Positions 9,933 to 17,827 of a DNA stretch of 64,000 bases are shown piece after piece. Location of the stretch: positions 1-64,000 of the forward strand of contig JAKPMO010000024.1 of NCBI GenBank assembly GCA_029548865.1. The letters run 5' to 3'. The DNA comes from Caldisericota bacterium (GTDB lineage: Bacteria; Caldisericota; Caldisericia; JAAYUI01). The position numbers and the translations under genes were made by a program. Under the pieces are notes generated by a model. The model was not told where the DNA came from, did no database searches, and saw nothing but the letters and a program-made list of their open reading frames with translations. Positions within the stretch are counted from its first letter, which is position 1. Each line of letters opens with the position of its first letter.

Positions 9933-10925
9933 CCGGCTCGCATAAAAACCATTAGGGAGCTTTATTACAAGTCCTTTTATATCAAGAACCGTGATTATCC
10001 CCAACAACGCTTCCGCATTCAGGTCAGTCTTGTCACATATTTCATCAATCCTGCATGGTACCGCACAAGCCAGCAGAATAGCTTTTTCTGTTTCACTTAA
10101 AGATTCATCAGTATAAAGGGTTGTCTTTCCATACAAAGACAGAACATCTGAAGGTGAATCTACAAGCAAAGCACCATCTTTGATAAGCTTATTGCAACCC
10201 TCAAAATTCTGCATGCCAGGAAGTCCAGGACAAGCCAGTACATACCTTCCCAAATCCAGCGCATCCCTAGCTGTTATCAATGCACCGGATGACTTCGGAG
10301 CTTCGATAACAAGGCAAGCCTTTGAGAGGGCAGCAATTATTCTGTTTCTCCATGGGAAAGTCCATCTATCACCTGGAAAATTGGGTGGAAACTCTGAAAC
10401 AATGGCACCCTTTACTGAAATCCTCTTTTTGAGCTCCCTTTGCGTCGCACTTCTGGCCTGGTTTATCCCACACCCAAGAATAGCGATTGTAGGTTTGTCG
10501 GTATCAAGAGCTCCCCAGTGTGAAGCTGAATCAATCCCATCCGCCATCCCAGAAACCACGACAATCCCTGTTTTTGAAAACTCAAAAGCCATATTTCTGG
10601 CAATTCCTATTCCGTGTGGCGAGGCCTTTCTTGTCCCCACCATCGCAATAAGGTCCTGGGTTTCAGGAAGCCCACCAAAAACAAAGAGTGCCGCTGGTGG
10701 GCACTCTAGGTCAAAAAGGTTTTTTGGGTATCTCTCGTCATCCTGGCAAACAAATTCAATGCTCGATGACTTGATTTCAGAAAGACCGGTACTTATGGCT
10801 GTCTCAATCTCCTGCTTGCCAAAATCTTTCAGTATTTCCTCTGGCCCTTTCTCTTTCAATTTTCCCAGGGCCTGCGGTTTCGAGGCAAGCAAATAAGAGA
10901 TAGCCAGCCAGTAATTCCTTTCCAC
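9900..10925 (-). CDS. dprA: DNA-processing protein DprA
   Basis: AMVGTR, VSGMADGIDSASH, FPWRNRIIAALS, SGALITA, GCNKLIKDGA; start placed at GTG 10925 overlapping the upstream TAG. Confidence 0.95.
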   Translation of the reverse strand: MERNYWLAISYLLASKPQALGKLKEKGPEEILKDFGKQEIETAISTGLSEIKSSSIEFVCQDDERYPKNLFDLECPPAALFVFGGLPETQDLIAMVGTRKASPHGIGIARNMAFEFSKTGIVVVSGMADGIDSASHWGALDTDKPTIAILGCGINQARSATQRELKKRISVKGAIVSEFPPNFPGDRWTFPWRNRIIAALSKACLVIEAPKSSGALITARDALDLGRYVLACPGLPGMQNFEGCNKLIKDGALLVDSPSDVLSLYGKTTLYTDESLSETEKAILLACAVPCRIDEICDKTDLNAEALLGIITVLDIKGLVIKLPNGFYASRSFSDTKTGKN

Positions 10926-11182
10926 TAAAGTTTTTTCTGATAGTTGTATGTTAGAACGGCAAGGCCGGTAAACAGCAACATGGTGCCAAAAAGCACCACA
11001 ACCCATTGCTGGAGACCATTATATTTCAGGAGCGGCTTGAGACTTGATGCAAGCCCTACTTTGTCTATTCTTGCGGCACTCTGCATGCCATCAACCAGCT
11101 CGAGCGTCATTATCGCAAGAAAACAGCCAAGTGCAATAAGAACAAGCAGCACCATTACTGCGGTTATTTTCTCTTGCTTCAT
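10925..11182 (-). CDS. Small 2-TM membrane protein, possible accessory subunit of the Rieske/cytb-Flx complex
   Basis: 85 aa with two hydrophobic helices; ATGA overlap with the upstream gene and GGAG RBS. Confidence 0.7.
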   Translation of the reverse strand: MKQEKITAVMVLLVLIALGCFLAIMTLELVDGMQSAARIDKVGLASSLKPLLKYNGLQQWVVVLFGTMLLFTGLAVLTYNYQKKL

Positions 11183-11436
11183 TTTTTCTCCTTTGAGAGC
11201 CACTTGTCAAATAACTTTACTCTTTTGACTACCTTTCCCCTATGGTCTTCTGAGGCGTACATTCCAAAAACCAGAAGAAACATCATGGCCAAAAAGATGA
11301 GGCCAAAAGCGACAAGCTGGACAAAACCGAATGGACCCAGTTCTCCCAACACCTTTGCTGTCTGGACGAGTTGTGCAAGCGAAAGCACGCCAACCAGCAG
11401 GGCCAGGATAAAAATCAGGGTCCATTCATTTTTCAC
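11179..11436 (-). CDS. Small 2-TM membrane protein, possible accessory subunit of the Rieske/cytb-Flx complex
   Basis: 85 aa, two hydrophobic helices and basic C-terminus; GTGA overlap with the cytochrome b stop. Confidence 0.7.
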   Translation of the reverse strand: MKNEWTLIFILALLVGVLSLAQLVQTAKVLGELGPFGFVQLVAFGLIFLAMMFLLVFGMYASEDHRGKVVKRVKLFDKWLSKEKK

Positions 11437-12905
11437 AGACTTTTTACTCCAAGTGCAAGGGCCTTTTCAGCCTTCTTTTTTATAACCCTTCTCCTCCACA
11501 CATATTCAAGGAAGAAGGCAAGAGCAAACACAAACCCATTGAAGAGGAGTATAGTGTATATGTATATATTCCTGTCGGCATCCTTGAATGGTATCCAGTA
11601 AGACGCCAGAGAGCCTATTAGGAAGAAGGTGAGGCCACCAATCGCAAGCGTTGTGTAGGCCGGCCTTCCGGAGGCATTTCGTTGCTCCCTCCTGTCAATC
11701 CACGGAAGGGCAACAAGGAACACGATAAATAACACCGTCAGCAATGGCCCAATGGCACCAGGCAAGAACTTGAGATAGAAATAAACAAACAGAAAGTACC
11801 AGTCTGGCAAGATGTGGTCGGGTGTCTTGACTGTGTTTGGCGGTGGCTCACTGATTGCAGGCAAATACAATATTGCACCAATTATAACAATCGCCAATAT
11901 GGCAAACATGACCCAGTTGAGTTTCGGGCGTTTTTTCCTCGACCTGATAAAATACAACTCTGCGGCGAGGAACATGGCGATTGGCAACAGGTAATGCAAT
12001 ATATTGAACCTTAGAATTGTCGTCTGGCCAACCTGGTGTGCACCAAGACCAATAAACTTGAGCGCGGCACCCAAGCCCAAAGGACCAATACCAGGCAGAA
12101 GATCAACAGTATCAAGCATCTGCGTTCCTACTGTTGTTGCCCAATAAGACCTCTGGTCAAACGGAAGAAGGTAACCGGTTACACCCGAGAATGTTGAAAT
12201 GCAGACAACCAGCGTTGCAATTATCCAGGTTAGTTCTCCTGGTTTTTTGAATTCACCATTGAAATACATCCTAAGCCAGCGAAGCATGAGCAACGCGATG
12301 AAGCAATATGCACCATATCTGTGTATTCCTCTTATCGTTCTGGTTACTGGATTGCCAGAAATGTCTGCAACAGATATGTACGCTTTTGATACAATGACTC
12401 CAAGGTCAGCAACAATTTCTTCCGGGGTTTTGCCTTCCATGGCCAGTATATCCTTGCGCTGGCTGGTTATCGTTGCCCACTTGGTATCAACAAGAGCCTT
12501 TTCTGCATCTGTTGTAAGGGCGGCCTTTTCCTCGTCGCGCTGGGTAATCTCTTCCTGCGTGAGGAGCTCGTCCTCGGTCATCTCGCCAGCATCGATTTTT
12601 ACCCTGAATTCCTCTGCTTCCTTCATTGCCCCTTCAATCGTAAGTCCATGTCCATACATGACTTTTGAAGGATCAACTTTCTCAACAGGCGAGGTGTCAG
12701 GAACATAATAAAATGTCAGCACAATGCCAACGACCACCTGAAGGATGAGGAGGATGTAGAGCATGCCACCAATCCAGTAGAATGGATTTGATTTTTTCTT
12801 TTTTGGTGTCTCTTCATCGAAGATATTGACCTTGAGGCCTCTTATCTTCCACCATCTTGTCCACGATTTTGTCAAGCCGTCAAGCCAGTTTGCAAATTTG
12901 TCCAT
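11433..12905 (-). CDS. Cytochrome b of Rieske/cytb family (8 TM), Qo site retained, heme bH ligands lost, about 100 aa insertion
   Basis: NPFYWIGG, IRGIHRY, TGYLLPFDQRSYWATTVG, RFNILHYLLP, HILPDWYFL, LPWID; GGAGG RBS. Confidence 0.93.
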   Translation of the reverse strand: MDKFANWLDGLTKSWTRWWKIRGLKVNIFDEETPKKKKSNPFYWIGGMLYILLILQVVVGIVLTFYYVPDTSPVEKVDPSKVMYGHGLTIEGAMKEAEEFRVKIDAGEMTEDELLTQEEITQRDEEKAALTTDAEKALVDTKWATITSQRKDILAMEGKTPEEIVADLGVIVSKAYISVADISGNPVTRTIRGIHRYGAYCFIALLMLRWLRMYFNGEFKKPGELTWIIATLVVCISTFSGVTGYLLPFDQRSYWATTVGTQMLDTVDLLPGIGPLGLGAALKFIGLGAHQVGQTTILRFNILHYLLPIAMFLAAELYFIRSRKKRPKLNWVMFAILAIVIIGAILYLPAISEPPPNTVKTPDHILPDWYFLFVYFYLKFLPGAIGPLLTVLFIVFLVALPWIDRREQRNASGRPAYTTLAIGGLTFFLIGSLASYWIPFKDADRNIYIYTILLFNGFVFALAFFLEYVWRRRVIKKKAEKALALGVKSL

Positions 12906-12914
12906 TCTGGCCTC

Positions 12915-13763
12915 CTAAAAAGCCGCCGGCATTGCGGCGATCTGGGCTGATGTGAACACCGGGCCGTCCTGGCAGACGTAGTTGTGTCCAACATTGCATC
13001 TTCCACATTTTCCGCAACCGCAATTCATTCTGGCCTCAAGAGAAGCAAAAATCTTGTCTTTTGGGAACCCTATCTTGTCCAGACCAATGAGGGTGAACTT
13101 AATCATCACTGGTGGCCCTGATATTACAACTGCAGTGTTCTTGAAACCTGGGTCAATTTCAAACAGCAATTTTGACCTATTCTTGAAATTTGGATCATAA
13201 TACTGCCCGACAACACCAACATCTTCTTTCCATGTGCTGTCACCTTTGTCGCATGATCTCTTTACCTCAACATCTTTTACTTTTGCCCATTCAAAAATCT
13301 TGTTTTTAAAGACTTGATCGGCGGGTGTTTTCGCACCATAGAGTATCTCTATCTTGCCGTAGTCAGACCTTTTGTCGAGGGAATAGGTGAGCATGTTGCT
13401 GATGGCAGAGAAGCCAACGCCACCGGCCATATAGCTGATGTTCATTCCCTTAAGTGCGTCCTTCGGGAAGCCATTTCCATAAGGGCCCCTCAAAGTGACC
13501 CTGTCGCCAACTTTCATTCCGTGGAGCTTCTCGGTCACTGCGCCAACTTTCATGATGGTCAGCTCAAGGTGTTCCCTCTTTGTTGGAGTGTTGCCAATGG
13601 ATATCGAGCAGTCGCCAACACCTGGAATTCCAATTATGCAAAACTGGCCAGGGTTATAGTCAAAATTCCCGCCATCCCTTTTGATGTAGAAAGTTTTGAT
13701 ATTTGGCGTTTCCTGCTCGATTTTTTCAATTGTGGCCATCTCTGGCAGATACGGGTTCATCAC
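12915..13763 (-). CDS. FAD/NAD(P)-binding [2Fe-2S] oxidoreductase, FlxA/AsrB/HydG family
   Basis: PGQF, RGPYGNGF, AGGVG, LYGAK, GPPVM, MNCGCGKCGRC...VCQDGPVF. Confidence 0.92.
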   Translation of the reverse strand: MMNPYLPEMATIEKIEQETPNIKTFYIKRDGGNFDYNPGQFCIIGIPGVGDCSISIGNTPTKREHLELTIMKVGAVTEKLHGMKVGDRVTLRGPYGNGFPKDALKGMNISYMAGGVGFSAISNMLTYSLDKRSDYGKIEILYGAKTPADQVFKNKIFEWAKVKDVEVKRSCDKGDSTWKEDVGVVGQYYDPNFKNRSKLLFEIDPGFKNTAVVISGPPVMIKFTLIGLDKIGFPKDKIFASLEARMNCGCGKCGRCNVGHNYVCQDGPVFTSAQIAAMPAAF

Positions 13764-14785
13764 AGCGCACCTCCCAGGGTCTTTAGTGTTTCTGAAAGCG
13801 AGATTCCTGCTGGACAGAGGTCAGAACACCTTCCGCATCCAGTGCAGGCAATTTCTCCGTAGAGTGTCATGTGGTACTGGTACTTGTCCAGAATTTTGTT
13901 TCTGTAGCGCGCGGCAACATCGGGCCTTGGGTTGTGGCCAGAGGCCTCAAGCGAATAGACCGTGAAATGGCAAGAATCCCAACACTTGTCTTTGTTGCAG
14001 GAAGTAGCACCAGTTTTGCGGTCTCTCATTTCGAAGCAGTGGCAAGTTGGGCAGAAGAACGTGCACACGCCGCAGGAGATGCAACCCTGGCTCACCTTTT
14101 GCCAAATCGGGGATTCATAGAGTTTCATGTACTGGCCAGCTTTTGAGGTGTCCAGTTTGAAAATCATCATCGACTCGCAGGCCTTTTTGACTTTTTCCTG
14201 GGTCGCTTTGGCATCTCCACCATCTTCAAATACGGATTTGTTGGCCTCTATAAAAGATTTTCCCTTTTCAGTTGAAACAATGACCTGATAGGAATCACCT
14301 TCCGGAACCAGGAGAATGTCGGAGCCAGCTTCAGAGGCGGGGTGGATTCCAAGCGACGAGCAGGCACATGTTGAGAGCGGTTTTTCACAGGCAATCGCAA
14401 TGATGAGAGTTTTGTCCCTTTTGTCTTTCCAGTATGGGTCTTCAAACGGCTGTTTGCCACCATCCTTGCGGTCCCTTGCAAGGAAGAAATTGTCCAGTAT
14501 CTGGATGCCCCTGGCATCACATGGCCTGACCCCGAAAAGGATGGCCGGTTTTGAGGTATCTGCCTGATGAACCTTGTCGTCTTCTACTTTGTATATCAGT
14601 TCGGTTTGTGGAAAGATCACTTCTTTGGCTGGTGTTGCAGTCCTTATAGTTTTGAGGTCAATCGATTTTATATCTTCAATCCTCTTGAAGTTTGTGACCG
14701 CACCGTTTTTTTGTGGGGCATAAGCAACATGGGTCTTTCTCGATTCATCAATCAGGGAGAGCATTTTTTCTTTTTTGATTTTCAT
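13760..14785 (-). CDS. 4Fe-4S protein, FlxB/AsrA/HydB family
   Basis: FGVRPCDARG, CISCGVCTFFCPTCHC, CWDSC, CTGCGRCSDLCP; ATGA overlap and GGAGG RBS. Confidence 0.92.
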   Translation of the reverse strand: MKIKKEKMLSLIDESRKTHVAYAPQKNGAVTNFKRIEDIKSIDLKTIRTATPAKEVIFPQTELIYKVEDDKVHQADTSKPAILFGVRPCDARGIQILDNFFLARDRKDGGKQPFEDPYWKDKRDKTLIIAIACEKPLSTCACSSLGIHPASEAGSDILLVPEGDSYQVIVSTEKGKSFIEANKSVFEDGGDAKATQEKVKKACESMMIFKLDTSKAGQYMKLYESPIWQKVSQGCISCGVCTFFCPTCHCFEMRDRKTGATSCNKDKCWDSCHFTVYSLEASGHNPRPDVAARYRNKILDKYQYHMTLYGEIACTGCGRCSDLCPAGISLSETLKTLGGAL

Positions 14786-15777
14786 GCCCACCTCCCCAAC
14801 ACTTCTTCAACTTTATAAAGGGCCAGCGGTGTTTTTGCCTTGTCGCTGATTCCAGGTTCAAAGTCCCAAGTTGTTTTTGTCATATAGCCAATCTGTTCTG
14901 TTATTAGATTGAGCGGGATATTCTCAGGGCAGGCCCTTGCACATTCACCACAATTTGTGCATCTGTCAGAAAGGTGGAAATAATGGATGAAATGGTATGT
15001 CAAGATTGAGGCAAGAGAGGTTCCCTTCTGGAGATATGGTTCGGGTAACTTTGGATGGTCCATGATGCAGTTGGTATTGCAGTAACAACCCGGACAGGCA
15101 TCCCTGCAAGCAAAGCACATCGTGCACCTTGAAAGCTGGGAAATAATGTATGCTCTGCGCTCCTCAAAAGGCTTCTGGAGATAAGATTCCATCCACTTTT
15201 CCCAGTTCTTGGTAGGTTTTTTCGGCATGTCATCGGGTAGCAGTTCGTCAACCTCGAGTGCTGATGTATACGGGCAGCGAAGGCACCTTGGGTCATAGTA
15301 ATCTGATTTCACCAGATCGACTTTCTTGCCATCGAGCATTTCTACATGCAATGTTGTTCCGTCATCAGTAATATTTTTGATGTCAGAATCAAGGCCTGAC
15401 CTGACAAGATCAATATCAATGGTGCCGGGGCACTTTACGCCAATAACCCAGAGATTGTCTCTATCGACTTTGTTTTCTGCAACGTTGGCCAGAAGGTTCC
15501 TAGAATCACAGCCTTTGACCATGACACCGAACTTCTGCCCCTTTTTAAGCTCAGGGACATAAAAGGTTTTCCCACCAAGGAGTCTCGAAAGATTCTCTCT
15601 TGAGAAGGAGTTGAAAATCAGAAGGTCTGCTTCTTCATGGGTAGTAGCGACAAATGCTCTGGTTTTTCCAGGCATATCAGCGACTTCCCTCCAGCCGAGG
15701 AAACCAGCAATTTTCCCTGACTTTATGGCTTCTTTTACAATATTCCTGAAATAGGCGAGGGTTTTTTCTGTCATCAT
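14782..15777 (-). CDS. 4Fe-4S protein, FlxC / FdhB-FrhB-C-terminal-like family
   Basis: VKGCDSR, GVKCPG, CLRCP, CTMCFACRDACPGCYC...C, HLSDRCTNCGECARACP. Confidence 0.88.
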   Translation of the reverse strand: MMTEKTLAYFRNIVKEAIKSGKIAGFLGWREVADMPGKTRAFVATTHEEADLLIFNSFSRENLSRLLGGKTFYVPELKKGQKFGVMVKGCDSRNLLANVAENKVDRDNLWVIGVKCPGTIDIDLVRSGLDSDIKNITDDGTTLHVEMLDGKKVDLVKSDYYDPRCLRCPYTSALEVDELLPDDMPKKPTKNWEKWMESYLQKPFEERRAYIISQLSRCTMCFACRDACPGCYCNTNCIMDHPKLPEPYLQKGTSLASILTYHFIHYFHLSDRCTNCGECARACPENIPLNLITEQIGYMTKTTWDFEPGISDKAKTPLALYKVEEVLGRWA

Positions 15778-16181
15778 GCTTCCACCCCCATGCTGTCGAG
15801 TTTGCGCTTCATTGCAGAAATTTCTCTTGTCAAAACACCGTAATCAAGAGGATCTTTTTGAATATAGGAGAGCCTCTCTGGGTCAACACCGAGAGCCTCT
15901 GCAACTGACTGTGCTGCAAAAATCCTGCGCTTTGCGAACATGTTTCCATCAAAATTGTGGCAATCGTTGAGAGGGCAACCATAGATGATGATTGCTCCAA
16001 CACCTTCCACAAGGGCCTTGAAGGCAACAACAGGATTGAGTCTGCCTGTGCAGGAAAGCTTTACAAAGCCAACTTCAGGAAATTTGTCTTTGTGGTTTTC
16101 AAGGTCTTTGCCTTTCAGAGCCGATTCACAATGGAAAACTATTATTTTTCTTTTGATCGGGAGATCTTCTATTGAAGGCAT
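15774..16181 (-). CDS. MvhD/FlxD-like [2Fe-2S] protein
   Basis: IIVFHC, LSCTGR, GCPLNDCH..GN..AKRR, LGVDPERL; four Cys. Confidence 0.9.
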   Translation of the reverse strand: MPSIEDLPIKRKIIVFHCESALKGKDLENHKDKFPEVGFVKLSCTGRLNPVVAFKALVEGVGAIIIYGCPLNDCHNFDGNMFAKRRIFAAQSVAEALGVDPERLSYIQKDPLDYGVLTREISAMKRKLDSMGVEA

Positions 16182-17233
16182 AGGCCTTTTACCTCCTCGA
16201 GTATGACTTTGTTCTCGAAACCTTCTAAGTCAATGACCTGCGGTAAACAGCCAGCAACACAGATTCCACAAGCCTGGCATTTTTTTCTTACAACAAAAGC
16301 AACATCTTTTGTCTTGTTCCTGGATACATTGAATTTCTTTTGTGTTATCGCGTTCTTTGGGCAAAGCGTGATGCAGGTAAAGCACCCAGAACAACGGACA
16401 GGATCAACAACAGCGGCTGTTTTAATCTTCCTGCCAAAGAATGGCAACGCAATCAGAACTGCGATGAGGAACCCCCAGGCACTTGCTGCAATGGTGGGAC
16501 TGCCGAGTCGTATAGTGAACAGCCCTATCCAGTCGAAAACATATTTTCCAGCCTTGAGATCTGTTTTGCCAGCGATTGGGAACAAGCCAACAATCACGGC
16601 AAGAACTCCAAGGAAAATCAATGAGAGGGCAAATGTTGGGATAACTGGCGGTCTGGAAATCCTGGCAAAATGCCATACAAGAAGAGCGAAAACAAGGATT
16701 GGAGCTCCAATATGAAATGCCCTGTAAATGACAAGCAGGGCAACCTCCGTTATCTGGCCTCTTCCAAAAAATTTGAGTATTTCAGATGCTCTTCCATCCA
16801 TCGGAAGAATGTAGCCTGTTATGGTTATAAGTACTGTGAACACCAGCAATGCAACGCCGACAAACCATCCAACCGATCTGGTGCTTGTATGCCTCTGGGC
16901 AAAAAGTTTTCTGAGCATGTGTGCTGCAGCAAAGAGAATCATTGCATCAGCGGCATACCTATGGAGCGTCCTTATGAAAAGGCCATATGGTATTTTGTCC
17001 GACATGATATACATGATCGACTTTTGGGCCTGGTCCAGAGACGGCATATAGAAGAAACTCAGGACAAAACCTGTCAATATCTGGATGAACAGCAAAAGGA
17101 AGGTTATAGAGCCAAGGCTGTTGAGAATGTTGATCGATTCAAAACCTGCCTTTAGGACATCAAAAATTCCCAATGTCCCATTTATGAGAAAATTCAACGG
17201 CTTAAAAGGGCTATAGGATTTGCTTGGGCTCAT
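16169..17233 (-). CDS. Diheme cytochrome b fused to C-terminal 2x[4Fe-4S] ferredoxin; Qo site degenerate
   Basis: Four His (IRTLHRY, AAHML, AFHIG, VWHFA; two pairs 14 apart), TGYILP; CSGCFTCITLCP and CQACGICVAGCLP; start placed at MSPSK. Confidence 0.92.
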   Translation of the reverse strand: MSPSKSYSPFKPLNFLINGTLGIFDVLKAGFESINILNSLGSITFLLLFIQILTGFVLSFFYMPSLDQAQKSIMYIMSDKIPYGLFIRTLHRYAADAMILFAAAHMLRKLFAQRHTSTRSVGWFVGVALLVFTVLITITGYILPMDGRASEILKFFGRGQITEVALLVIYRAFHIGAPILVFALLVWHFARISRPPVIPTFALSLIFLGVLAVIVGLFPIAGKTDLKAGKYVFDWIGLFTIRLGSPTIAASAWGFLIAVLIALPFFGRKIKTAAVVDPVRCSGCFTCITLCPKNAITQKKFNVSRNKTKDVAFVVRKKCQACGICVAGCLPQVIDLEGFENKVILEEVKGLCLQ

Positions 17234-17235
17234 AG

Positions 17236-17793
17236 TCACACCTTTTCCACTGTTATTGCACCAGAACCTTGATCCCATTCCACTTTCCAGGGTTTAAGGG
17301 CTGATGGAGGCGGGCCTGCAATGACATTTGCGGTCACTGGGTCAAAGAAACCGTCATGACAACGACAGTGCCAGTTGTTCGAAACCGAGTCCCAGTAAAT
17401 AACGCATGCAAGATGGGTACATTTTGCATCCCAGGCGTGGAGTTTACCTTCCTTGTCCTTGATCAATATTCCTGGATTGCTGATCTTTACTGGTTTAGTT
17501 GGAATCGAAGTGTCGATAGTGACAATTTCAAATGAATAGCCAAGCATTTCTTTCATCGAGTTGTAGTTAGCTTCAACATCCGCAAAGCTTGTCCCGCCAC
17601 CGGCAAGCATTGGTTCTCTCATACTCGAGAGAACAACCCTCGCTACAGATGGTGGTGGAATTGCCAGACCAAGTTTACCAAAAGGCTTCAATAACCTTAG
17701 TACTGGTGAAATCGCCCCTGCGAGCAAGCCCAGGAGCGGCAAGCCTAGAAGGACCTTGAGCAATTCTCGTCTTGTAACCTCTTTTTGACTCAC
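17236..17793 (-). CDS. Rieske [2Fe-2S] protein with Tat-type membrane anchor
   Basis: TRRELLK plus hydrophobic helix, CTHLAC, CRCHDGFFD, GPPP; GTG start with GGAGGA RBS. Confidence 0.95.
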   Translation of the reverse strand: MSQKEVTRRELLKVLLGLPLLGLLAGAISPVLRLLKPFGKLGLAIPPPSVARVVLSSMREPMLAGGGTSFADVEANYNSMKEMLGYSFEIVTIDTSIPTKPVKISNPGILIKDKEGKLHAWDAKCTHLACVIYWDSVSNNWHCRCHDGFFDPVTANVIAGPPPSALKPWKVEWDQGSGAITVEKV

Positions 17794-17827
17794 GCTGTCC
17801 TCCGAATTGAGAATTTGCATAGACTCA

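Follow-up and report, generated by a model that had tools for sequence, protein, structure and literature searches.

Complementary losses in two co-encoded cytochromes b point to a naturally heterodimeric Rieske/cytochrome b complex

The window analysed here is a 64,000-nucleotide stretch of DNA from a Caldisericota bacterium (assembly GCA_029548865.1, contig JAKPMO010000024.1, positions 1 to 64,000). Its minus strand, on which all of the operon features below lie, carries a run of nine genes encoding a Rieske protein, two cytochromes b (cytb-A and cytb-B, or A and B), an MvhD/FlxD protein, three subunits resembling those of Flx, Asr and Hyd enzymes, and two small membrane proteins. The two cytochromes b have lost complementary parts. 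Cytb-A keeps the residues of the quinol-oxidation (Qo) site and the ligands of the low-potential heme bL, and both of its ligands to the high-potential heme bH are replaced; cytb-B keeps all four heme histidines and has lost the Qo residues. This pattern is real, is found far beyond the window and is not the result of decay. We consider it probable that the two proteins form a heterodimer in which electrons have to pass from bL to bL and no Q-cycle operates.

Complementary losses in cytb-A and cytb-B

Residue statistics are drawn from 69 A rows, of which 68 are distinct, and 39 B rows, with 162 other cytochromes b as controls. Before counting, we dropped six control rows without histidine at the position of A residue 209, all rows not exceeding 200 residues, and A and B rows that were fragmentary or near-identical; five of the six are apparent fragments of the A clade and one is a divergent A-like protein. 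Since non-histidine rows were removed, the control figure for histidine at 209 is partly fixed by construction (it was 126 of 132 before removal).

Cytb-A (490 amino acids; 11433..12905) is a long-type cytochrome b in which only the Qo residues and the bL ligands survive. The two bL ligands, His195 in helix B (12321..12323) and His304 in helix D (11994..11996), are histidine in 69/69 rows and thus as invariant as Arg212, Gln251, Trp255, Glu316 (11958..11960) and the DWY of the Qo motif, which reads PDWY in the window (11796..11807) and SDWY outside Caldisericota. Alignment to solved cytochrome b6 places Arg209 (CGC; 12279..12281) and Tyr318 (TAT; 11952..11954) at the two bH/bn ligand positions of helices B and D. 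A preliminary description of the window had claimed that both bH ligands are changed, and the alignment bears this out; the codons that it gave for both proteins, and its position for PDWY, also proved correct on a codon check. Residue 209 is Arg in 54 rows, Lys in 15 and His in none, and residue 318 is Tyr in 42, Arg in 14, His in 10 and Phe in 3. Together they form the pairs Arg/Tyr (28), Arg/Arg (14), Lys/Tyr (14), Arg/His (9), Arg/Phe (3) and Lys/His (1). The 17 rows with Arg/Arg or Arg/Phe lack a ligand at both positions, which makes a conserved second heme unlikely, and no alternative ligand pair is conserved across the 69 sequences.

A second sign of bH loss is found in helix C, where the glycine present in every B row (39/39) and control row (162/162) is Ala230 in the window (12216..12218) and remains glycine in just 3 of the 69 A rows. 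Gly46 is kept in all 69, and 68 of them have Tyr or Trp at position 50. In bovine numbering, Gly230, Tyr50 and Glu316 match what we take to be residues that pack bH or line the quinone-reduction (Qi) pocket. Glu316 is not among the residues listed at its position for the B and control rows. A buried ion pair between Arg/Lys209 and Glu316, together with aromatic residues, probably fills the empty bH pocket of A; this vacated pocket may act as a structural plug or as an ion path. The fold itself is intact, since a structure model of a cytb-A orthologue (predicted local distance difference test score 87) matches solved cytochromes b with a template modelling score of about 0.7. This orthologue comes from one of the three Caldisericota families that carry the operon, labelled here f1, f5 and f6, namely f6; an earlier model built from a 20-row alignment scored 52 and was discarded. 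A more divergent A-like cytochrome b, P0131, has Arg at 209 and an ADWY motif. At the heme-ci position, cytb-A of the window has Trp, and no heme-ci cysteine is seen in the 64 of 69 A rows that are listed.

Cytb-B (354 amino acids; 16169..17233) has its four heme histidines at His91 (16961-16963), His105 (16919-16921), His174 (16712-16714) and His188 (16670-16672), as the preliminary description had it, and ends in a domain with two [4Fe-4S] clusters that contains two CxxCxxCxxxC motifs and resembles part of HdrA. All four histidines are kept in 39/39 B rows; of the Qo residues, Gln251, Trp255 and the motif's Pro and Tyr are lost, and none of the 39 has a heme-ci cysteine. The cd loop had been described as largely deleted. 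This holds for Caldisericota, where it spans 33-38 residues in 18/18 rows, 14-19 fewer than the usual 52; the loop is of near-normal length (49-52) in the other 21 B rows. Likewise, the Qo motif is indeed absent, and the VFDWI reported in its place is one form of an xDW[F/I] motif that occurs across B-type proteins, with families f5 and f6 lacking the motif altogether. The stretch between helix D and the Qo motif, which holds the Qi loop, has a median length of 51 residues in A and B compared with 76 in controls, with overlapping ranges. A histidine five residues after the bH ligand was considered as a Qi indicator and proved uninformative, being present in only 21/162 controls. Both proteins are unsplit and have a helix-D histidine spacing of 14 (69/69 A and 39/39 B rows).

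A tree was built in a single search from 79 rows (helices A-D, 175 columns, 34 sampled controls) and is unrooted. In it, A forms a single group (100/99), and B shares one side of a branch with fusions of cytochrome b to iron-sulfur (FeS) and MvhD or FNR domains (99/93). The 34 controls fall on one side, and A and B with their relatives on the other (94/86, not starred). This topology fits an old duplication; the order of events is not given by the tree. Database proteins P0334-P0402 comprise large numbers of cytochrome b-ferredoxin fusions, some with MvhD and some with FNR. The loss in the two paralogues is complementary, as first described, and B is more than a degenerated twin of A, because it groups with stand-alone cytochrome b-FeS fusions.

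Conservation within and beyond Caldisericota

The A gene is present in 25 of 93 Caldisericota genomes (11/11 in family f1, 1/2 in f5, 13/13 in f6 and none in four other families), and the gene order of the operon is constant wherever contigs are long enough. All 25 A proteins have Arg at 209; of the 24 that extend over residue 318, 21 have Tyr there and 3 have Phe. The four histidines of B are kept in 20/20 rows. These rows are kin and do not count as independent events. Among named records, the nearest are metagenome-assembled genomes of Caldisericales/Caldisericia. An independent contig covering 10727-13285 differs from the window in zero letters, which excludes assembly error, and a second run shows no difference at the codons for residues 209 and 318.

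Homologue searches also returned proteins beyond Caldisericota with Lys or Arg at the 209 position. A profile search of 1.84 billion representative sequences gave 18 clusters scoring above 315 bits, the next at 225, and Arg or Lys stands at 209 in every one of the 18. In the metagenome scan, for which counts rest on 80 of 328 confirmed loci, 37 loci (L141-L177) encode Arg or Lys at this position; seven of the remaining 43 were inspected and encode ordinary four-histidine proteins. Armatimonadetes, Holophagaceae and Candidatus Melainabacteria are among the source labels of this group beyond Caldisericota. The 37 loci share the order cbb3-type CcoN, CcoO-cytochrome c, diheme cytochrome c, Rieske protein, A, small membrane proteins, B-ferredoxin and MvhD. 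Where the loci are long enough, CcoN is linked in 16/16 (at least 5 kb upstream), CcoO in 21/21 and the Rieske gene in 31/31. B follows A in 23/24 loci with at least 1.5 kb downstream, and the FeS domain of B with MvhD is found in 20/21 loci with at least 2.6 kb downstream. Flx genes occur in 0/37 of these cbb3-linked loci. In another locus, L183:1608-16146, we observed two Rieske/cytochrome b sets with several multiheme cytochromes c (8-11 CxxCH motifs), one of them fused to a Rieske-like domain. A scan of a genome collection with the window protein gave, among its best 80 matches, 8 Caldisericota loci; the others were weak (36-44% over short stretches, mostly with Actinomycetota labels), and of these matches L108 was inspected.

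A complex III of this kind is therefore encoded in several bacterial groups that are largely uncultured. Decay confined to one strain, or sequencing error, which would make the missing ligands an accident of one genome, can be given virtually no credence: the pattern is kept in 69/69 rows of the clade and in several lineages, together with a gained invariant residue, and independent contigs agree. Two of the three conditions that the preliminary description named as refuting its reading could be checked by sequence, and neither refuted it: orthologues have not kept the bH histidines, and there is no conserved alternative ligand pair. A and B are encoded together in several lineages.

A probable heterodimer with a proposed obligatory bL-bL route

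In known dimers, the only short heme-heme distance between cytochrome b chains is that between the two bL hemes, at the dimer axis (PMC7908018). In an engineered fused bc1 dimer, removal of bH from one half and blockage of Qo in the other leaves turnover that proceeds via bL-bL transfer, whereas a symmetric bH knockout has no connection between Qo and Qi (PMC4330944). In the operon described here, A has an entry site and no route across the membrane, and B has a route across and no evident entry. The simplest arrangement would thus be a heterodimer of A and B that holds three b hemes and a single Rieske protein.

We propose that the two cytochromes b meet at the usual dimer surface, with A contributing the only quinol site and one heme, bL, and B contributing bL and bH. 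Quinol would be oxidised at Qo of A and its two electrons split. One would pass through the single Rieske protein to c-type cytochromes, leading to the cbb3 oxidase in aerobic relatives. The other would travel from bL of A to bL of B, on to bH of B, and then through the two [4Fe-4S] clusters in which B ends on the cytoplasmic side to MvhD, from which the Flx-like NAD(P) module would receive it in Caldisericota. As there would be no re-reduction of quinone on the cytoplasmic side, the proposal has no Q-cycle. We hold the parts of this model with differing confidence: judging from the ligand residues, it is very likely that A carries bL and B carries bL and bH, and it is likely, if less firmly so, that the two pair through the canonical dimer surface. 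Taking these elements together, we lean towards a family of complex III enzymes, spread over several phyla, that are heterodimeric and cross-inactivated by nature. The bL-bL bridge would be their sole exit, and Qo bifurcation would serve as a module that supplies or consumes low-potential electrons in the cytoplasm, coupled in microaerobes to a cbb3 oxidase and in digester anaerobes to an Flx NAD(P) module and surface-anchored cytochromes c.

One co-variation agrees weakly with such a pairing. In family f1, Asn in A (Asn301 in the window; 12003..12005) occurs with Arg in B (Arg171; 16721..16723), both three residues before the helix-D bL histidine (8 of 38 pairs); the other 30 pairs are aromatic/aliphatic. 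We take this position, which would correspond to F195 of R. capsulatus, to lie at the dimer axis. A B/B dimer would then set Arg against Arg. A complex prediction set up as a competition, run without controls on two copies of an f6 cytb-A (residues 8-370) and the membrane part of its cytb-B, gave ipSAE values of 0.27 and 0.24 against a mark of 0.32 and counts neither way.

Several observations weigh against this model. What the analysis establishes is the residue pattern, its conservation and the linkage of the genes, and the pairing is inferred from these; the Asn/Arg co-change happened once, in a single lineage. Histidine is retained at 318 in 10 of 69 A rows; Tyr, Lys and Glu are also able to ligate heme. 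Control lengths for the stretch from helix D to the Qo motif reach down to 50, so a short loop alone is no proof of Qi loss. The nearest relatives of B are reported without a Rieske gene in their clusters, and B-type proteins may therefore work without an A partner. Of the metagenome loci, L162 has a B gene (11961-12896) that ends before the FeS domain and no MvhD, and L169 has a truncated A and no B; these are either real losses or assembly chimeras. The remaining points concern the organism that carries the window and are taken up with the direction of electron flow.

Operon, genome context and direction of electron flow

The Rieske protein (194 amino acids; 17236..17820), which is the sole Rieske match of the window genome, has a twin-arginine leader, a single transmembrane helix and a G-F signature of the low-potential type. 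This signature is found in 20/20 Caldisericota rows; all 33 cbb3-linked rows listed have S-Y. Potentials read from these motifs are above +260 mV for S-Y and about +150 mV for G-F (PMC4122944). However, such readings can mislead, as an anammox Rieske protein lacking one hydrogen-bonding residue measured +335 mV (PMC12954380). Assuming a menaquinone potential of -70 mV, a membrane potential of 150 mV and the symmetry rule used for the anammox complexes (PMC12954380), we computed a low-potential branch at -400 to -440 mV for S-Y and -290 mV for G-F, which becomes -250 to -290 mV and -140 mV, respectively, after the 150 mV are taken into account. Forward bifurcation to cytoplasmic FeS centres is therefore plausible with O2 as the sink and doubtful for NAD+ in the window organism: about -140 mV against -320 mV for NAD+/NADH leaves forward NAD+ reduction some 180 mV short, a further point against the model as applied to the window organism. 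Thus, the route from Qo to FeS put forward at the outset fits the cbb3-linked relatives well, where we regard the forward direction as likely with good confidence, and is energetically doubtful in the organism of the window, where we favour it only slightly.

The reverse direction within the same heterodimer has to be weighed here. In Caldisericota, electrons from NAD(P)H or ferredoxin would pass through the Flx module and B to bL of A, and menaquinone would be reduced at Qo with a further electron supplied by the Rieske protein. This reading concerns direction only, is compatible with the proposed architecture, and is a serious contender that we rate somewhat short of an even chance. The uniform G-F signature of Caldisericota and the energetic shortfall speak for it, as do the absence of COX1 matches from all 25 operon-bearing genomes (the window genome and 24 others) and the failure of the queries used to find complex I and FixC in families f5 and f6. 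Against it, family f1 has two other quinone-reducing systems and no other clear quinol sink was found; potentials predicted from motifs are fallible, as the anammox case illustrates; and cytochrome c maturation tracks the operon, so that a periplasmic partner exists in either direction. Matches to maturation genes were found in 25 of 93 Caldisericota genomes, 24 of them operon carriers.

The window genome (93% complete) has MenA- and MenG-like genes, adjacent on contig C27, an 11-subunit-type complex I cluster without NuoEFG genes in the cluster, and FixABC. UbiA-family prenyltransferase matches occur in 23 of the 25 operon-bearing genomes and also in family f2. No match was found in the window genome to COX1, bd oxidase, molybdopterin enzymes, NrfD, NarI or fumarate reductase, which leaves the Rieske/cytochrome b complex as the only clear quinol-oxidising candidate found. 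Two further points count against the proposed model. Three NapH/MauN-like membrane FeS proteins (L251:11370-12194, L252:6519-7337 and L253:5192-5971), encoded in this genome without a nitrate reductase match, could react with quinone; and c-type cytochromes of the kind seen in family f1, like complex I and FixC, were not found in f5 and f6 with the queries used.

No cytochrome c1- or f-type acceptor is encoded in the window operon. Candidate partners of the Rieske protein are three secreted proteins with a single CxxCH motif each and a domain of the copper-amine-oxidase N-terminal type (G000:C19:51417-54785; L133:7421-10786), which lie outside the operon and are conserved in family f1; the cbb3-linked form has diheme cytochromes c. 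Two of the three are related to the GEGP diheme family, a further relative of 700 amino acids is encoded on contig C28, and the three may possibly serve as surface cytochromes for extracellular electron transfer. A flavin adenine dinucleotide (FAD) protein on C19, considered as a fumarate reductase, was identified as NadB instead. The genome has a ccm cytochrome c maturation cluster (G000:C9; L228:8067-12600) and no match to HemB, a combination that suggests heme uptake.

The remaining genes of the operon follow in order on the minus strand. The MvhD/FlxD-type [2Fe-2S] protein (135 amino acids; 15774..16181) is followed by a 2[4Fe-4S] protein (331 amino acids; 14782..15777), labelled FlxC-like from gene order as Pfam recognises only its Fer4 domains, and by a FlxB/AsrA/HydB-like polyferredoxin (343 amino acids; 13760..14791) that scores under the curated cut-offs of the named NCBIfam models. 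Next is a FlxA/AsrB/HydG-like [2Fe-2S] protein that binds FAD and NAD(P) (282 amino acids; 12915..13763), whose sequence does not distinguish between NAD and NADP. Cytb-A contains an acidic ab-loop insertion of about 100 residues without cysteine (12396..12698), which extends to about 300 residues in two sister genera and is absent from families f5 and f6; it could be a docking site for a periplasmic partner. Downstream lie the two-helix membrane proteins sm1 (85 amino acids; 11179..11436) and sm2 (92 amino acids; 10925..11203), neither belonging to a family; genes similar to sm1 follow cytb-A in other lineages. In ESM Atlas, sm1 has no match at 0.9 or above, and cytb-A hits general cytochrome b clusters only. 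A promoter scan found 8 sites where 9.4 are expected. Contigs from three metatranscriptome runs cover the operon patchily; contigs of this kind cannot demonstrate transcription. There is no Hdr gene in the window operon. On another contig, HdrABC accompanies an Mvh-type hydrogenase (L134:5882-16471); a group 3b-like hydrogenase cluster (L137:6681-11029) and an archaeal-type GatE-like gene (L131:10851-12794) were also observed.

Alternative architectures

Three other arrangements would account for the residue pattern without the proposed heterodimer. A might form an ordinary homodimer with two Rieske proteins, with B docked alongside, in an A2B2 or similar assembly, taking the electron from bL of A over a new surface; the wiring would be unchanged, and the natural dimer bridge would go unused. 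The characterised bc1 and b6f complexes are all homodimers with intertwined Rieske proteins (PMC7908018), an aromatic residue follows the bL histidine in most A rows, and the two small membrane proteins of the operon could form a new interface. Nonetheless, we judge such an assembly unlikely, because the only short distance known between hemes of different cytochrome b chains is that between the bL hemes at the dimer axis (PMC7908018), the Asn/Arg co-change lies on the dimer-axis surface, and A and B with their relatives stand opposite the canonical cytochromes b in the tree (94/86, not starred), as expected of a duplicated dimer partner. We give still less weight to a separation of functions, in which A and the Rieske protein would oxidise quinol by themselves, bL acting as a temporary store and both electrons leaving through the Rieske protein, and B would be a stand-alone quinone:FeS module of the PDWF-FeS type with its own quinone site. 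The grouping of B with the FeS-MvhD and FNR fusions, described without Rieske genes (PMC4122944), and the full-length cd loop and xDWF motif of B outside Caldisericota are in keeping with this. Yet B of Caldisericota is short of 14-19 cd-loop residues, in f5 and f6 also of the motif, so that no evident quinone site is left; bH knockouts of bc1 fail to sustain normal turnover (PMC4330944); and A without B is found in only 1/24 informative loci, where A is truncated.

The preliminary description had also raised alternative heme ligands in A. A second heme held by Tyr318, Glu316, His318 or Lys209 would give A its own route across the membrane. Glu316 is invariant, residue 318 is Tyr or His in 52 of 69 rows, Gly46 and Arg212 are kept throughout, and related complexes contain a glutamate-ligated heme cN (PMC12954380). 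Set against this are the Arg/Arg and Arg/Phe rows without a ligand, the loss of Gly230, the Tyr or Trp at position 50 and the missing heme-ci cysteine of the window protein, and we regard a second heme in A as improbable. The A/B heterodimer remains the reading that we prefer.

Comparison with known systems

The complex shares the fold and a co-encoded Rieske protein with bc1 and b6f complexes, with the Qo motif, Gln251 and Trp255 confined to A. Their four axial histidines in the Qo-bearing cytochrome b are not found here, as A lacks the bH pair and B the Qo residues. A survey of these proteins treated the four histidines as invariable and removed cytochromes b without them (PMC4122944), a filter that may explain why the A clade was overlooked. 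Both proteins are unsplit, their helix-D spacing is 14 (15 in b6f) and no heme-ci cysteine is seen in the rows listed, which sets them apart from b6f.

A cytochrome b-based relative is the PDWF-FeS clade of Kao and Hunte, defined by a fused 4Fe-4S domain and MvhD, or by ferredoxin and a flavin reductase (PMC4122944). It shares with cytb-B the four histidines, an xDWF-type motif, a short helix D-E stretch and FeS and MvhD parts, a match that rests on domain architecture and not on the sequences named in that paper. In the portion of the survey used here, PDWF-FeS clusters have no Rieske gene and no bH-less partner, and MvhD is fused, whereas cytb-B has an adjacent Rieske gene and MvhD as a separate gene; the motif is PDWF there and FDWI in the window, and is absent in f5 and f6. 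Natural loss of a bH/bn histidine ligand is also on record, in Pyrobaculum and in cyanobacterial subfamily K cytochromes b; there, one ligand is lost, its function is unexplained and the passages concerned describe no complementary partner (PMC4122944, PMC5600118). Desulfovibrio FlxABCD, which is joined to HdrABC, has NAD(P)-binding FNR-like, AsrA-like and MvhD-like subunits in one operon. The window operon has a like set of subunits, with HdrA replaced by a membrane cytochrome b that bears an HdrA-like ferredoxin domain.

The Rieske/cytochrome b complexes of anammox bacteria (Kuenenia Kuste4569-74 and Kustd1480-85) are likewise proposed to produce NAD(P)H through Qo bifurcation instead of running a Q-cycle; they differ in being modelled as homodimers, with a split b6-type cytochrome that carries both hemes and heme cN, a Rieske potential above +300 mV and another reductase subunit (PMC12954380). 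If our reading is correct, quinone-based bifurcation that delivers electrons to NAD(P)H or ferredoxin, until now proposed for the anammox complexes only, would have a second and independent design in the operon complex.

The closest operon on record is that of Melainabacteria, where petB, petB and petC lie next to a type C heme-copper oxidase and are annotated as b6f (PMC6349859). It shares two cytochrome b genes and one Rieske gene with the window operon, and the cbb3-type oxidase with the wider form; the window operon has an Flx-like module and no oxidase. A Candidatus Melainabacteria record falls in the 90%-identity cluster of the L171 cytb-B, and the Melainabacteria operon is therefore very probably of the same family. 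Soo et al. (Science, 2017) are also said to have described a fused complex III-IV operon that includes two proteins related to cytochrome bc. The parts of the Melainabacteria account drawn on here are silent on lost ligands, a heterodimer or an FeS/MvhD exit (PMC6349859). A full-text search, with most subscription papers and 17 of the 29 supplements of PMC6349859 outside its scope, turned up neither a description of heme and Qo losses that complement each other nor one of a natural heterodimer, and the passages seen of PMC6037941, PMC4451040, PMC11304991, PMC3903129, PMC3509893, PMC4683180 and bioRxiv 2024.09.16.613360 contain nothing on heme asymmetry. The combination of two petB genes with an oxidase had thus already been noted, and the heme asymmetry is the part for which we found no account. 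If the heterodimer is real, the Melainabacteria complex III/IV operon, which is used in arguments on the origin of respiration in the lineage of Cyanobacteria, would have to be read differently.

To our knowledge, bL-bL transfer has so far been demonstrated only with engineered dimers. Cross-inactivated bc1 dimers show the identical cofactor pattern and the obligatory path from Qo through bL, bL and bH; they are artificial and end at a quinone in Qi, and the proposed end in the operon complex is the fused ferredoxin domain (PMC4330944). The complex described here would be their natural counterpart. A 2021 review called the physiological meaning of bL-bL transfer in bc1 and b6f dimers unclear (PMC7908018), and a natural enzyme that depends on this bridge would make the question of dimer function directly testable. 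Being like the Rieske/cytochrome b enzymes at Qo and departing from their four-histidine pattern, the complex is best placed as a variant of that family.

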